Shown here: one piece after another, positions 1 to 5,448 of the stretch
How the letters are laid out: every line of letters begins with the position of its first letter
Numbering within the stretch: position 1 is the first letter of the stretch
NCBI GenBank assembly: GCA_041821565.1
Contig: JBGUEB010000001.1
Span: 1-57,023, forward strand
Origin: Gammaproteobacteria bacterium
GTDB lineage: Bacteria > Pseudomonadota > Gammaproteobacteria > GCA-001735895
Length of the DNA stretch: 57,023 bases
Reading direction: 5' to 3'
Made by a program: the position numbers and the translations under genes
The notes under the pieces: model-generated
The model's input: the letters and a program-made list of their open reading frames with translations, nothing else
Told to the model about the DNA's origin: nothing
The model's database searches: none

Positions 1-415
1 CCCAATGTGACGATAAAGATGCTAAATTCCGTGTCGTGGAACTAAATATACCTGTTGCAGTGTATGAGAAATGGTTGGATTCTATTATCAGAATTTCCGG
101 AGATATTTCTTTAATTCCAGTTTTTCCTTTATGCACCATTTGGCACCTGTCCCACATGGGGTGTGATGTAAAGCCGGGCGCGATATATTCAATAAGATGA
201 TTTGAAACTAAGTTTATTTCACATAGAAAGAGATTGCTCTCATTTTTAATTATGATTTCTATACAGGCATCCTTCTCTGAATGCTTTCCAACTGAAACAA
301 ATAGATCATCGAAATAGCGAGTCTCTACTTGAGACATTATCTTCTGTATTGACTCTCCGACAATCTGGAGCTCATTCTTCTTTGGAGGAAACAATTTTCT
401 TAGCAACTTCTTCAT
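1..415 (-). CDS. Hypothetical protein (cassette ORF, runs off the left window edge)
   Basis: Own translation of the - strand: ATG at 415 (alternative in-frame ATG at 337), 12 nt after the GTTAAG end of attC copy 1. The frame is open to position 1 (138 codons). It is absent from the ORF track because no stop lies in the window. No motif recognised. Confidence 0.5.
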   Translation of the reverse strand, partial: MKKLLRKLFPPKKNELQIVGESIQKIMSQVETRYFDDLFVSVGKHSEKDACIEIIIKNESNLFLCEINLVSNHLIEYIAPGFTSHPMWDRCQMVHKGKTGIKEISPEILIIESNHFSYTATGIFSSTTRNLASLSSHW

Positions 416-427
416 CAGTATGTTCGC

Positions 428-485
428 TTAACGCTTCGCATCAGCGGCGCGGCTCTGCCGCGTCCGACTGCATGCGTTTGTAATG
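428..485 (-). repeat. attC-like site, copy 1 (its ORF-proximal box reads CATTAC instead of CATAAC)
   Basis: ttaacgcttcgcatcagcggcgcggctctgccgcgtccgactgcatgcgtttgtaatg. Same family as 1328, 2085 and 3113. Lies 3' of the OsmC-family ORF. Confidence 0.7.
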
Positions 486-626
486 TGGCAAGGGTATATT
501 CCTAACACAAAAAGACGTCAATATGATTAAATTGTATTTACTAGCATGGATGATCGTGCACCAATAATTCGTAACTGGTTTTTGACAAGGGTGTTTTTCA
601 AATTGAATTCTGGCGGTAAATCAAAC

Positions 627-1148
627 TTAAGACAGTTCTATTTTTACTGATACTGCCCGACTTAAGGTGTGGCCTACTGGCGACGTTTTGGTGACTTTTT
701 TGTGCAAGGCTTCGAGGTCCGCTGCTGAAGCATCGCTGTCAATCTTCACCTTCACTGAAATGCCGCTGTAGCCCGCATTGCTATCTGAAAGGCCAAGAAA
801 AGTGTGTAGATCGATATCACCTTCAAGGTCGATAGAAAGATCTCTAATTTCAATGCCTGCAACAGTCGCATTTGCGGCATACCCTACTGCCAAACAATTA
901 CCCAAAGCCGCGAGGACTTGCTCTACTGGATTTGGACCTGTGTTACTACCACCTAGCGCTGGCGGTTCGTCTGAGGCTAATGGTTCGAAATCTCGAATCG
1001 TCGCTTCAGACCGAAATCCACCCTTCCATTTCACCTGTGCATTCCATTTGGTGTTCGCGACTTCCGGCTCTTCCTGAATTTTCCCCACCAGACTAGCCAC
1101 TGAGTCAATATCAACATCATTTAATTTAGTTTCTTCAGCTGTAGACAT
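627..1148 (-). CDS. OsmC/Ohr-family peroxiredoxin-like protein
   Basis: 173 aa. The 'GPNPVEQVLAALGNCLA' segment and overall length are typical of the OsmC family. Single ORF in a cassette-sized unit. Confidence 0.85.
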   Translation of the reverse strand: MSTAEETKLNDVDIDSVASLVGKIQEEPEVANTKWNAQVKWKGGFRSEATIRDFEPLASDEPPALGGSNTGPNPVEQVLAALGNCLAVGYAANATVAGIEIRDLSIDLEGDIDLHTFLGLSDSNAGYSGISVKVKIDSDASAADLEALHKKVTKTSPVGHTLSRAVSVKIELS

Positions 1149-1204
1149 TTTCGAGTACCTTCGCAGTGGGTAGAATAATCGAAGTTACTCCAATTAAAGA
1201 ATGA

Positions 1205-1240
1205 TGACAATGTTCAAAAGAGACCGGTTGAACAATGTCA
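1205..1240. promoter_or_regulatory. 13-bp inverted repeat (tgacaatgttcaa-N10-ttgaacaatgtca) in the 5' leader of the OsmC-family cassette
   Basis: 12 of 13 positions are complementary. Located 57-92 nt upstream of the ATG at 1148, within a ~180-nt leader. Confidence 0.3.
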
Positions 1241-1327
1241 AATCATTTGATTGTTTAGACTCGTGGAGGGCTCAGTTGAAATCTGGGGTCAGGATATGCA
1301 CCAGTTGAGTCAGCTGCTGTCGTGCCA

Positions 1328-1386
1328 CATAACGCCTCGCATCAGCGGCCCAGCTTTGCTGGGTCCGACTGCATGCGATTGTTATG
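1328..1386 (-). repeat. attC-like site, copy 2
   Basis: cataacgcctcgcatcagcggcccagctttgctgggtccgactgcatgcgattgttatg. The terminal cataac/gttatg boxes pair perfectly. Confidence 0.75.
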
Positions 1387-1438
1387 CGCAAGATACGTAG
1401 TAATTTCAATAACTACCGTACAGGTTACTAAGTACCAT

Positions 1439-1684
1439 TTATTTGGCATTATCCCGGCGGGATTGCTTTACAAATGTAGAAATATACAAATCTTCCACCT
1501 TATCTCTGGCCCATTGGGTTTTACGCAAAAACTTCAGTGATGATTTTACTGATGGATTACTCTTGAAACAGTTTATGTCGACTCTCTGAGCCATTCCATC
1601 CCAGCCGTAATGCTCTACTAACCTCGCTACAACTTTCGCGAGCGTTAGACCATGCAAGGGATTATTCAATTGTTCACTACTCAT
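1439..1684 (-). CDS. DUF2132 / VF530-family small putative DNA-binding protein
   Basis: 81 aa. '[17 protein letters not shown]....RV.INCF...[23 protein letters not shown]' matches the DUF2132 signature as I recall it. Confidence 0.75.
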
Positions 1685-1776
1685 AACATTCGATGCACCT
1701 ATATTACTCTGAATGTTTTTGGTCGATAACGCGAAGATGAGAGGTGCCGTTTGCGGCGTCGATTTTGACGATCATA

Positions 1777-2025
1777 TTATTCCGTTTTGTTTACAGCTCT
1801 TTTGACACGAATCTTATTACTGGCAACAGTCATATTATTCAAATTTTTCATTGCTACCTTGGCTTCTCCTGGTTTCGGCATTTCCACAAAAGCAAAACCT
1901 TTGGATCCACCGGTGGTTTTATCTGACACTAAATCACAAGATTGTACGGTGCCATATTCCTGAAAAAGAGCCTTTACCTCTCCTTCGGTAGTGCTACGAG
2001 CAAGATTACGAATTATCAATTTCAT
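1777..2025 (-). CDS. RRM (RNP-1) domain RNA-binding protein
   Basis: 82 aa. RNP-2-like 'KLIIRNL' and RNP-1-like 'KGFAFVEM' motifs at the typical spacing. Confidence 0.85.
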   Translation of the reverse strand: MKLIIRNLARSTTEGEVKALFQEYGTVQSCDLVSDKTTGGSKGFAFVEMPKPGEAKVAMKNLNNMTVASNKIRVKRAVNKTE

Positions 2026-2084
2026 AAGTTAATAAGCCATTAAGTGGCAAGTGAATGTGCAGAATTCCATTTTACTGTTTTGCG

Positions 2085-2143
2085 TATAACGCCTCGCATC
2101 AGCGGCGCGGCTCTGCCGCGTCCGACTGCATGCTATTGTTAGG
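2085..2143 (-). repeat. attC-like site, copy 3
   Basis: tataacgcctcgcatcagcggcgcggctctgccgcgtccgactgcatgctattgttagg. Lies 3' of the DapB-like ORF. Confidence 0.75.
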
Positions 2144-2233
2144 CGATATTTTGAATTCCATGCCGGATGGCTGTAATGTGCCCAGTCCAAACGAAATATC
2201 CATCTAGTATATCGCGGGATAGTCCAAGAGATT

Positions 2234-3034
2234 CTATTTGTGTAGCATGTCATCCATGCTGTAAAAGCCTGGTGGTTGGTTGCTGATCCACACTGCGCCA
2301 TCCAGAGTCGCCGGAGCGAAGGCTTTTTGATCGGTAACTCTGCTCGTAATTTCAAGACGTTGACCGGAACCCGCAAAAAATACTGTATTCTCGCAGACGA
2401 CATCACCACCACGCAGTGATGCGAAGCCAATTTTTCCGCGCTCTGGTTTTCCAGTTTCCCCATCACGCGAACGGAGCATTACATCAGACAATTTGACACC
2501 TCTTCCAGTAGCAGCATACTCGCCAAGTTCCAATGCAGTCCCTGATGGCGCGTCAATCTTATTCCAGGGGTGAAAATCGAATATCTCAATATCAAATTCA
2601 TCGTTCAGCATTCCCGCCGCTGTTTTTATCAGCTCATACATGACCATAACCGATACGCTCATGTTCGCCCCTAATATGATTGGCAAAAACTGGCCGGCCT
2701 CAACTAGCTTTGTGTGCTGTGACTCCGTAAATCCTGTTGTTGCAACCATTAGAGGAGTCTGTTTCTCGACTGCCGTTGGTATCAAACTCATAGTGGCCGA
2801 TGCTGCGCTGTAGTCAACAACGACATCGGATTCCTCGCATAAGGCACCAACATCGTCGGTGACCTCGATACCGAGCGGTATTAACCCCGCTAGTGTACCA
2901 AGGTCCTTACCGAGCTCGGACGACCCGGGTCTCTCGCAACCGCCGGCAAGTGTGCACTTGTCGCTTTCATGGATTGCCTTTATTAGTATCTTGCCCATAT
3001 GGCCTGCCGCGCCGAATAGTCCTATTTTCGTCAT
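2234..3034 (-). CDS. 4-hydroxy-tetrahydrodipicolinate reductase (DapB)-like protein, divergent paralogue
   Basis: N-terminal Rossmann 'KIGLFGAAGHMG', 'ATTGF' and 'DAPSGTA' align with E. coli DapB. Start moved to the ATG at 3034; the track used an upstream TTG at 3067. Confidence 0.8.
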   Translation of the reverse strand: MTKIGLFGAAGHMGKILIKAIHESDKCTLAGGCERPGSSELGKDLGTLAGLIPLGIEVTDDVGALCEESDVVVDYSAASATMSLIPTAVEKQTPLMVATTGFTESQHTKLVEAGQFLPIILGANMSVSVMVMYELIKTAAGMLNDEFDIEIFDFHPWNKIDAPSGTALELGEYAATGRGVKLSDVMLRSRDGETGKPERGKIGFASLRGGDVVCENTVFFAGSGQRLEITSRVTDQKAFAPATLDGAVWISNQPPGFYSMDDMLHK

Positions 3035-3112
3035 TTTCTTCTCGCTTTGGTTAGGGGGAATAGACAAAGATTATACGAAAGCTGTCATTGTGTGTAGGCT
3101 GTTTCGATATCG

Positions 3113-3170
3113 CCTAACGCCGGCATCAGCGGCCCAGCCCTGCTGGGTCCGACTGCATGCGTTTGTTATG
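3113..3170 (-). repeat. attC-like site, copy 4
   Basis: cctaacgccggcatcagcggcccagccctgctgggtccgactgcatgcgtttgttatg. Lies 3' of the methyltransferase ORF. Confidence 0.75.
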
Positions 3171-3177
3171 ACCTGGC

Positions 3178-3738
3178 TTACAGTCGTGCGTAATTATAAA
3201 CATTGCTTTGTTCGTGAGTTTGTTTAAACAAATTCGATTGAACGATGAGATTTGGTATCCAGTTATGGATTAAAGGAGGAAAGAGCCATATTGACATGGT
3301 AGACCCAGGTTTAAGAACTCGATACATTTCTGGCAATAATTTATCCAACGGTAATAACGGGAAAGGGATAACACCAAACAATAGGGCCTTATCGATGCTC
3401 TCATTTTCTAGCCCGGTATTAAGAGCGTCTCTCTGCAAGATTGTGACGTTTTTTAAATTAGCCGCTTGTACTTTTTTAGCTACTTCTTTGAGAAATCCTG
3501 AAGATGCATCCAATGCTATTATTTGTCCTCGGTCACCCACCATTTGTGCAGCAGGTATGGTGAAAAAACCTGTGCCACATCCTACCTCCAAAACAGTTTG
3601 ACCCGGCTGAATATCCGCAATTCTCAGTTGCTTCACAGGATCCATAATCCATTTTCTTACTCTACTCCCCATAAGTAATCCGGACGGTTTGAAAATTAAA
3701 TTTATTATTCTTGAATTACCTAAATCTTCTGTTTTCAC
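3178..3738 (-). CDS. Class I SAM-dependent methyltransferase
   Basis: Motif I 'VLEVGCGTGFF' and 'ALD' (post-I), with later 'PGS' region. GTG start at 3738 preceded by AGGGTG. ATG alternatives exist at codons 23 and 32. Confidence 0.75.
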   Translation of the reverse strand: MKTEDLGNSRIINLIFKPSGLLMGSRVRKWIMDPVKQLRIADIQPGQTVLEVGCGTGFFTIPAAQMVGDRGQIIALDASSGFLKEVAKKVQAANLKNVTILQRDALNTGLENESIDKALLFGVIPFPLLPLDKLLPEMYRVLKPGSTMSIWLFPPLIHNWIPNLIVQSNLFKQTHEQSNVYNYARL

Positions 3739-3754
3739 ACTAGTTCACCCTAAG

Positions 3755-3791
3755 GCATAACAGCCTATTTAAAAGGTCGTTGACCTTTTAA
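3755..3791 (-). other. Candidate attI / first cassette boundary: GTTATGC box (- strand) next to a perfect 10-bp inverted repeat
   Basis: rc of 3755-3761 is GTTATGC, the same box type as the attC ends, 17 nt before the GTG at 3738. ttaaaaggtc-gtt-gaccttttaa lies at 3769-3791. Confidence 0.3.
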
Positions 3792-3984
3792 TATATATTA
3801 GCGAGTCGACTTGATAAATTGGGAGTGGGTAATTAGAGATTTTCATCGCATTGCTTCCTCTCGGTTTTTACTGCGGTTAATATTTTGTTCTTTATTATCG
3901 AGTCAATGACTTGATAATACTCTTGAATTTCTCGGAGTTGTTGGTTAAGTTGTTTCGAATAGTTTATCGAAAGGACTCGTTACT

Positions 3985-4711
3985 ATGCCGACTCGAACTC
4001 AATACACTTCTCCATTTTTGCAATCAGTCTCTAATTATATGGCGGTGCGTCGATATAGCAAACGCACAATCAAGTCGTATCTGTACTGGATCAAATATTT
4101 CATTGTCCAACAAAAAAAGCGGCACCCTAAAGAAATGGGCGCGGTAGAAATTGAAAAGTTTTTAACCTATCTTGCAGTTGAACAAAAAGTGTCGATCGCC
4201 ACTCAGAAGCTTGCCTTGAACGCTCTGGCTTTTTTATACAACCGGGTGCTTGAACAACCACTGGGTAATCTGGGCGAGTTCAATCGAGCCAAGCGGCAGC
4301 GTAATTTACCGATTGTTTTAACACGTCAGGAAGTTTCGCTATTACTATCCCGAATGAAGGGCGTAGACCAGCTGATGGCATCAATGATTTATGGTTCAGG
4401 ATTGAGGCGAACCGAGGCAGTACGCTTACGCGTCAAGGATGTAGACTTCGATCATCAGGAATTACAAATATGGAATGGCAAAGGTTCTCATAATCGGTTG
4501 ACTACTCTGCACTTGCTCGAATCGGGAGCTGGCCGGTTTTTGCTCCGAAACGTCGGACCGCTGCAAAGCCGGCATACACTACATCCATGTAGATAACATT
4601 CGCACGGTGCAAGAGCAACTCGGTCACCAGGATGTGAAGACTACAGAAATCTACACCCATGTTTTAAAGCGAGGCGCGCACGGGGTGCGTAGCCCGTTCA
4701 GCGATTTGTAA
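3985..4711 (+). pseudogene. intI: Integron integrase (IntI) pseudogene: in-frame internal deletion plus frameshifting 64-nt insertion
   Basis: The N-terminal 175 aa align by eye with VchIntIA/IntI1 ('YSKRTIKSYLYWIKYFI..KRHP..MG..EIEKFLTYLAVEQKVS..TQ..ALNAL.FLY', 'GSGLRRTEAVRLRVKDVDFD', 'IWNGKGSHNR'). The ORF jumps straight to 'HLLESGA' and stops at 4596. In the +1 frame it continues '[37 protein letters not shown]', ending at 4711. Confidence 0.8.
4532..4595. repeat. 64-nt palindromic insertion interrupting intI
   Basis: Removing 4532-4595 restores '[17 protein letters not shown]'. The insert contains the hairpin gccggtttttgc..tccga-aacg-tcgga..gcaaagccggc and a ctacatccatgtag motif. Boundaries are ambiguous by a few nt. 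Confidence 0.5.
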
Positions 4712-4773
4712 ATAGTGTTCGTTTCGATTACTTCCGGCGTTATATAATTCGTTTTTTTTGCAGGATTCAATTT

Positions 4774-5448
4774 ATGACCGATTCACCGCTTGTTATTGAG
4801 ACAGGGTCGCAACCACCCGACAGTTGCGTGATCTGGTTGCATGGCCTGGGTGCCGACGGCCATGACTTTGAACCGATTGTGCCGGAGTTGAGACTGGATC
4901 CGGGTCTCAATACTCGTTTTATCTTCCCGCATGCGCCGATGATCCCGGTGACGATTAACCAGGGCTTTGTGATGCGGGCCTGGTACGACATTCGCGAGAA
5001 CAGGATCGAGGCCGAACAGGATGAAGCGGGTATTCGACAATCGGCGCAAGCCCTTGTGCAGTTAATCGAAGAGCAGGTTGAGTCGGGGATTGCCACCGAA
5101 CGAATGGTACTGGCCGGGTTTTCACAGGGCGGTGCGATTGCCCTGTTTACCGCGTTACGTTATCCGCGGCAACTCGCCGGGGCGATGGTGTTGTCGTCTT
5201 ATATGCCCTTGTCACAAAGCCTTGAAGCCGAGAAAAATGAGGCCAATAGTGACATGCCGATCTTTCTTGCGCATGGCTCCGATGATCCTGTAATACCGGT
5301 TGATCTGGCTTACCGCACACGTAGTCAACTGGAACAACAGGATTATACGCTGAACTGGCATGAATACGCGGGCATGGCGCATAGTGTATCGGCACAGGAA
5401 ATCTACGATATTGCGGAGTGGTTACAGCAAACCCTGGCCCCGGCTTAA
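4774..5448 (+). CDS. Carboxylesterase / phospholipase-family alpha/beta hydrolase
   Basis: 224 aa. '[12 protein letters not shown]' and the nucleophile elbow 'GFSQGGA', with later 'HG..D' residues. Confidence 0.85.

Follow-up and report, generated by a model that had tools for sequence, protein, structure and literature searches.

The four 60-nucleotide (nt) repeats found between positions 428 and 3172 of contig JBGUEB010000001.1 (gammaproteobacterial assembly GCA_041821565.1) are very probably attC sites lying at the cassette ends of a sedentary chromosomal integron with a decayed integrase gene intI, and the C that each of them carries at extrahelical position 16 is most likely a tolerated variant. 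The whole stretch analysed, 57,023 nt long, is referred to as the window. An earlier note, made from the letters of the sequence, had located the four copies correctly and its quoted stem letters were accurate; several of its further claims about fold and base identity are taken up below. The repeats are direct, with pairwise identities of 78-88% over 60 nt. A degenerate core pattern gave four matches in the window, exactly the four copies, while none was expected (100 shuffles). The copies are listed here with the bulges of their predicted fold and their scores in a covariance model of the repeat family:

428 to 487, + strand (bottom strand): attC copy 1, OsmC cassette; R' TTAAC at 428-432, bulges T463, A467 and C471, R'' GTAAT at 480-484; 76.8 bits
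1329 to 1388, + strand: attC copy 2, VF530 and RRM cassette; R' ATAAC, apical stem CCCAGC-TTT-GCTGGG, bulges T1364, A1368 and C1372, R'' GTTAT; 84.4 bits
2086 to 2145, + strand: attC copy 3, DapB-like cassette; apical stem CGCGGC-TCT-GCCGCG, bulges T2121, A2125 and C2129; 81.1 bits
3113 to 3172, + strand: attC copy 4, methyltransferase cassette, which heads the array; apical stem CCCAGC-CCT-GCTGGG, bulges T3148, A3152 and C3156, one base missing in the 5' arm; 66.1 bits

Each copy has the core boxes of an attC site, for which the inverse consensus on the bottom strand is 5'-RYYYAAC-3' (R') and, at the 3' end, 5'-GTTRRRY-3' (R''), the two being able to pair. In copies 2-4, the R boxes read ATAAC or CTAAC on one side and GTTAT or GTTAG on the other, and copy 1 has TTAAC and GTAAT. 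In general, YTAAC pairs with GTTAK, and the cleavage site between AA and C lies in the 5' arm. Further inwards, an unpaired spacer of about 3-4 nt (GCC(T) opposite (N)TT) separates the R box from the L-box stem, in which CGCAT is paired with ATGCG. The hairpin ends in a G+C-rich apical stem of six base pairs (bp) capped by a 3-nt loop, which represents the variable terminal structure. In the minimum-energy DNA fold, all four copies carry three single-base bulges, T, A and C, on the 3' arm of the + strand. Over the ensemble these bases are unpaired with P = 0.70-1.00, at least 0.95 for all of them except C34 of copy 4. Two bulges spaced 3 bp apart on the outer stem had been described previously; these are the A and the C of the + strand 3' arm, and their spacing was given correctly, but their number was not, as the T forms a third bulge in all four folds. 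This T had been assigned to a G-T wobble closing the central stem. In the ensemble such a pair has P = 0.01-0.02, the T is unpaired with P = 0.98-0.99, and the G pairs instead with the following C (P = 0.98).

The + strand is the bottom strand, because the cassette genes lie on the - strand (the coding strand being the top strand), because of the AAC and GTT core boxes and because of the adjoining intI remnant, which starts at 3985. The AAC is located in the 5' arm of the + strand (R') and all bulges lie on the opposite 3' (R''-L'') arm. Just this arrangement has been described for bottom strands of attC sites (Nivina 2016, PMC5027507), and on this point the earlier note was right. The covariance model (R1) scored the four copies at 66-84 bits on the + strand versus 13-21 bits on the - strand, although, having been built from the same repeat family, it is not an independent test of attC identity. 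A search of Rfam gave no family for the repeats.

Counted from R'' towards the loop, the arm reads TT (8-9), AGCGTA (10-15), C (16), GTC (17-19), A (20), GCC (21-23) and T (24). The outer bulges C16 and T24 are thus separated by CTG and CCG, i.e. by exactly 6 bp, and each of the four copies has C as its L'' base and T as its far base. According to Nivina 2016 (PMC5027507), an attC site has two or three extrahelical bases: the one on the L'' side is at position 16 and usually G, the furthest one, a conserved T, occupies position 23 or 24, and some sites add position 20. VCR2 is G16/T20/T24 and attC_oxa2 is G16/A20/T24, and a 6-bp stem has to keep the first extrahelical base apart from the last. 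As judged from the predicted fold, the four repeats are canonical three-bulge attC sites of the form C16/A20/T24, their sole departure from the textbook bases being C for G at position 16. A20 is the optional middle extrahelical base, found at the same position in attC_oxa2. The proposal that the flipped-out bases were A and C instead of T and G therefore has to be given up, since the conserved T is present, the A is optional and only the L'' base deviates.

In an active integron, published work on other attC sites suggests that IntI would bind the folded + strand, lodge T24 in a Pro/His/His pocket and contact the L'' base in trans. Which strand recombines, and with it the orientation of the cassettes, would be set by the side of the bulges relative to AAC. 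Integrase binding, strand choice and recombination enter our interpretation by way of such published work, its other parts (sequence, predicted fold, covariation, genomic context and distribution) coming from the analysis itself.

The apical stems of the four copies come in two versions, CGCGGC/GCCGCG in copies 1 and 3 and CCCAGC/GCTGGG in copies 2 and 4, which differ by two compensated pairs (G-C to C-G and G-C to A-T). These changes had been pointed out before, with the remark that pairing is conserved; they are real and the pattern held beyond the window. Taken from the window alone, i.e. from two haplotypes in four copies, covariation is weak evidence. Across the wider family it is solid. 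We examined it in two sets of sites. The first set comprised 33 sites of the class with a 15-nt terminal hairpin, three from the window and 30 from other genomes, among the matches listed. There, the two pairs were GC in 22 and CG in 7 sites, and GC in 18, AU in 7, CG in 1 and UA in 1 site, respectively; a third apical pair was CG in 27 and GC in 5, and a pair at the foot of the L stem was CG in 20, GC in 5 and AU in 1. The covariation score of this set was 0.151 versus 0.071 for column shuffles (0 of 500 reached the observed value) and at most 0.074 for slid partners, with 88% of cells paired. The arms of these sites were fixed by the search pattern, and the second set tells more about them. 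It consists of 123 sites found by the model in arrays of 11 congeneric genomes and one genome of the same class. Here, 86.8% of cells were paired versus 27-38% with slid partners, and 21 of the 24 pairs had changed on both sides. The apical sequence is variable with compensated pairing, and terminal structures range from 15 to 42 nt across the family.

Further copies within this genome follow the same rule. The copy on contig C105 keeps the CGCGGC/GCCGCG pairing, the copy on C9 has CCCAGC/GCTGGG, and the copies on C321 have CCCAGC/GCTGGG as well as CCCGGC/GCTGGG (C321:1500-1564). On C53, the stem is extended to 8 bp (CAAAGTGC/GCACTTTG) with a longer loop. Pairing is broken only in the visibly degraded copy on C54. 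The window haplotype CGCGGCTCTGCCGCG was found letter for letter in five loci of other genomes (L019, L036, L042, L064 and L086), and the haplotype CCCAGCTTTGCTGGG in three (L049, L054 and L093). Both apical-stem versions occur widely, as alleles within a single large attC family. The two pairs changed in a compensated manner because only pairing is selected there, and such compensatory substitutions are what the attC model predicts. As a side observation, the apical stem at C321:1500-1564 holds a G.T pair and represents a one-step intermediate of the two window haplotypes.

The genomic context is that of a cassette array. The features around the repeats are as follows:

2-415, - strand: cassette open reading frame (ORF) without Pfam match, running off the contig
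627-1148, - strand: OsmC-like cassette ORF (Pfam)
1439-1684, - strand: VF530 cassette ORF (Pfam)
1777-2025, - strand: RRM cassette ORF (Pfam)
2234-3067, - strand: DapB-like cassette ORF (Pfam)
3178-3738, - strand: S-adenosylmethionine (SAM) methyltransferase cassette ORF (Pfam)
3755 to 3761: candidate attI crossover box, GCATAAC on the + strand and GTTATGC on the cassette strand, located 17 nt ahead of the GTG start of the first cassette; putative function
3985 to 4711, + strand: intI pseudogene, matching TIGR02249 only at positions 1-165 (4015-4509) and 278-315 (4595-4708)
4774 to 5448, + strand: carboxylesterase gene, directly after intI

All cassette ORFs lie on the - strand, opposite the attC bottom strand, and five of the six have a Pfam match. 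They are co-oriented, one attC is present at the 3' end of each cassette, and a divergent intI stands at the head of the array. The window begins at the contig end, and the array is truncated on the left. An internal deletion has cost the intI pseudogene about 112 residues, and with them the IntI-specific domain, which binds the extrahelical bases. The carboxylesterase gene follows intI in five congeneric genomes too, with 65-68% identity (L192-L196), and because the esterase adjoins intI in these relatives as well, the integron can be placed at a fixed chromosomal locus. In three of the five relatives with the intI-esterase arrangement, an intact IntI ORF of 328-483 amino acids stands beside arrays of the same attC family. 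Together with the similarity of sites within the array, the fixed position identifies the locus as a sedentary chromosomal integron, decayed in this genome.

Some observations on this locus stand apart from the argument. The cassette at 1389-2085 is shared by two small ORFs, the DNA-binding VF530 and the RNA-binding RRM, and a full-model scan without filters detected no further attC of the family between them or elsewhere in positions 1-5000. The G+C content of the array (1-3760) is 43.9% versus 49.9% in the rest of the contig and 49.5% in the genome, which is consistent with acquired cassettes. In one relative (L193, G004:C40, 1447-2898, - strand) the IntI ORF is open over 483 amino acids, about 160 residues of which lie upstream of the region matched by the integrase model.

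Several points weigh against the interpretation of the repeats as attC sites of this integron, or at least against their being functional ones. R'' of copy 1 is GTAAT, one mismatch away from GTT, and the 5' arm of copy 4 is one base short. The predicted spacer of 3-4 nt is below the usual 5-6 nt. The terminal loops of the bottom strand are pyrimidine triplets (TCT, TTT, TCT and CCT at 454-456, 1355-1357, 2112-2114 and 3139-3141, respectively), and the numbering 16/20/24 is our own count from a 7-nt R'', which agrees with the three published positions. The bottom strand has no folding advantage over the top strand either. When both strands were folded as DNA, minimum free energies on + and - were -18.7 and -19.5, -21.5 and -21.8, -19.1 and -19.1, and -15.7 and -16.6 kcal/mol for copies 1-4, so that the strands are equal within 1 kcal/mol and the claim that the + strand folds better does not hold. 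With other boundaries and a second parameter set (RNA), the gap was about 0.6 kcal/mol or less in either direction, apart from one copy with 2 kcal/mol under RNA parameters. For attC sites of mobile integrons, GAA loops and a mean bottom-strand folding advantage of 2.1 kcal/mol have been published. Finally, no IntI above the family cut-off was found anywhere in the assembly (98.65% complete), and given this and the pseudogenized intI, the four attC sites may be fossils. Besides, TTT and TCT loops dominate the whole repeat family on the bottom strand, and tyrosine-recombinase matches occur on contigs C106 and C26, far below the integron-integrase cut-off.

Equal folding of both strands also speaks for a reading of the repeats as generic intergenic palindromes, i.e. 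repetitive extragenic palindrome (REP)-like elements or transcription terminators that merely resemble attC. Like these, they are G+C-rich hairpins located after ORFs, and five solitary copies occur outside arrays in this genome. However, the hairpin stands between conserved AAC and GTT boxes and is bulged strictly on one side, and one site is present per cassette in arrays headed by intI, here and in relatives. On the coding strand the hairpin is not followed by a T-run, and solitary attC sites are a known category. We therefore consider this origin extremely improbable.

As for the attC sites themselves, the next question is what the identity of the bulged bases means. In the 123 related sites, position 24 is T in 107, C in 10 and A in 2; position 20 is A in 82, G in 17, T in 13, C in 5 and absent in 6; and position 16 is C in 115, T in 5, G in 2 and A in 1. 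The most conserved flanking columns are AAC and GTT. We also collected 100 filtered attC-like matches from other genomes by a pattern that left positions 16 and 20 free and fixed position 24; both pattern and model lean towards the source family, and the frequencies that follow are not unbiased for attC sites at large. Among the matches listed, position 20 was A in 46, G in 22, T in 19 and C in 13 of these sites, and position 16 was C in 77, G in 13, T in 5 and A in 5. A20 and C16 occurred together in 40 of the 100, again among the matches listed. In 36 neighbouring sites of the same loci which had not been selected by the pattern (among the matches listed), position 24 was T in 34, position 20 was variable or absent, and position 16 was C in 22, G in 10, T in 2 and A in 2. 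A/C bulges are common in public genomes, and the earlier note had named this as what would overturn its own proposal.

According to that proposal, the sites would form an attC class of their own, with A and C taking the place of T and G as the recognised bases and co-adapted to the integrase of the lineage. It has some points in its favour. A and C are indeed bulged in the predicted fold, clinical cassettes rarely have C at the L'' position (in Larouche and Roy 2011, PMC3053210, G occupies this position in most attC sites and C only in that of blaVIM-2, besides attC_dfrA1 with its A-N7-8-C), and one contact residue differs in the IntI of a relative, where Y210 of VchIntIA is H (genome G033). 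Nevertheless, the T bulge lies exactly at the position of the conserved T and is retained in most of the related sites, and the A position varies freely between all four bases and absence, as expected of an optional middle base. The same sites occur in many phyla, among the matches listed, and four unrelated integrases accept or prefer C: IntI1 excises T-N6-C as well as T-N6-G, and IntI3, IntI2*179E and SonIntIA excise T-N6-C better than T-N6-G (Larouche and Roy 2011, PMC3053210). With C already present in attC_dfrA1 and in the blaVIM-2 attC, and in the majority of sites in this family, C at this position is nothing new.

The integrases themselves do not favour co-adaptation either. The intact IntI of G033 aligns to VchIntIA (PDB 2A3V) free of gaps (E = 6e-111). 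We took the contact residues from Larouche and Roy 2011 (PMC3053210). P232/H240/H241 of the T pocket is kept as P/H/H, which fits the conserved T24, and around the second extrahelical base four of the five G20'' contacts are preserved, namely W157, K209, W219 and, with K as in IntI1, Q145. The fifth, residue 210, differs between three relatives with arrays of this attC family (H in G033, F in G002, Y in G004), and no consistent residue change towards a dedicated C-reading pocket was seen in these three integrases. In the window, the domain in question is deleted from intI, and because of this internal deletion co-adaptation to the local integrase is unsupported. Co-adaptation to the local IntI was rejected on these grounds: the domain is gone locally, the relatives keep the pocket, and residue 210 does not track the attC family. 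Altogether, a separate A/C class appears very unlikely.

A milder alternative accepts the canonical fold and regards C16 as a functional preference of the lineage, such that the IntIs serving this widespread environmental attC family would recombine C16 better than G16 and the textbook G would reflect sampling of clinical integrons and Vibrio. The predominance of C in the 123 sites (almost all from the genus) and, among the matches listed, in both the filtered sites and their pattern-unselected neighbours speaks for it, as does the increased excision of C sites by IntI3, IntI2* and SonIntIA. On the other hand, G, T and A are also found at position 16 within the same arrays, and conservation can stem from shared descent of the whole 60-nt sequence instead of selection on one base. 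Moreover, our model and pattern were built from C-rich examples. In VCR, the changes G16A, G16T and G16C had effects of 1.2- to 2.7-fold only, G16C costing 2.7-fold, and the nature of base 16 was judged not essential (Bouvier 2009, PMC2727003). A functional preference of this kind thus seems rather unlikely to us. Regarding the preferred interpretation, C16 is unusual among clinical cassettes, yet the majority state of this attC family; it is a known and experimentally tolerated variant, typical of the sequence family and no local oddity.

The family is not confined to the window. This genome contains 12 full sites, four in the window and eight on contigs C321, C105, C53, C240, C26, C54 and C9. 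Family matches were present in 30 of 36 congeneric genomes, with up to 68 per genome. At least 118 loci (L008-L125) were found elsewhere in the genome collection, some of them with a 15-nt terminal hairpin identical to that of the window. Labels among the matches listed include Gammaproteobacteria, Desulfobacterota, Cyanobacteria, Chloroflexi, Planctomycetes, Verrucomicrobia, Actinomycetota, Acidobacteria and Nitrospinota, and the isolates Allochromatium palmeri DSM 15591, Tumidithrix elongata and Microbulbifer epialgicus are among the matches listed too. Labels of metagenome-assembled genomes (MAGs) can err, but for several family matches the contig is 0.1-5 Mb long. In the plasmid collection, blastn gave no match to the family, the query being short and the sensitivity limited, and carriage by mobile integrons was rejected on this result, with the same limits. 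Grouping of attC sites by environment and not by phylogeny was already reported (Ghaly et al. 2021, PMC8352920). One can speculate further: C16 sites could predominate in a very large environmental attC family, preserved nearly letter for letter across many phyla, which would point to a common cassette pool if the MAG labels hold. The 'G and T' rule would then be a sampling artefact of clinical and Vibrio attC sites, with integrases possibly tuned to C. This wider view is doubtful as it stands.

Among known systems, attC_oxa2, a cassette site of class 1 integrons, is close to the repeats in its published description (PMC5027507), on which alone the comparison is based. It is short (about 60-70 nt), has extrahelical positions 16, 20 and 24 with A20 and T24 and a small terminal loop, and differs by G16 where C16 is found here. 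The VCRs of the V. cholerae chromosomal integron, whose structure with VchIntIA is solved (PDB 2A3V), likewise belong to a sedentary integron and are highly similar within the array. They too have three extrahelical bases (G16/T20/T24), of which the outer two are 6 bp apart (PMC2727003); the IntI of G033 is strongly similar to VchIntIA and retains P232/H240/H241. In contrast, VCRs are about 130 nt long and have a long terminal structure, compared with 60 nt and a 3-nt loop here, and C16 and A20 replace their G16 and T20. In the attC sites of dfrA1 and blaVIM-2 the extrahelical base of the L'' side is C as well, and the other base of dfrA1 is A (PMC3053210). Unlike dfrA1, whose A-N7-8-C is of ambiguous spacing and devoid of T, the repeats described here have the canonical T and the exact 6-bp spacing. 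Finally, the taxon- and environment-typed attC families of Ghaly et al. 2021 (PMC8352920) are likewise defined by shared sequence and structure and were modelled by covariance, and their clustering by environment fits the cross-phylum spread of this family.

The mechanistic weight of these findings is small, as the established attC model accommodates the sites and C16 was constructed and tested in other sites before. They do correct which bases are extrahelical and offer a clean natural example of compensatory evolution in a terminal stem. Of mild interest are still how widely the family is spread and that 'usually G' may be an effect of sampling. The C16/N20/T24 family, abundant in the genus and present in more than 100 loci elsewhere, could be useful for attC models and as a source of natural sites for synthetic recombination.

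Two minor observations concern the sites outside the window. Of the eight additional sites of this genome, three belong to fragments of cassette arrays on short contigs, which may be what the array lacks on its left, and the other five are solitary in ordinary chromosomal contigs. Adjoining one cassette-array fragment is a half-site (C105:3724-3791, L144) that consists of the R''-L'' arm and the terminal hairpin, inverted, with an unrelated 8-bp hairpin (GCTGACAG...CTGTCAGT) in place of the 5' arm.

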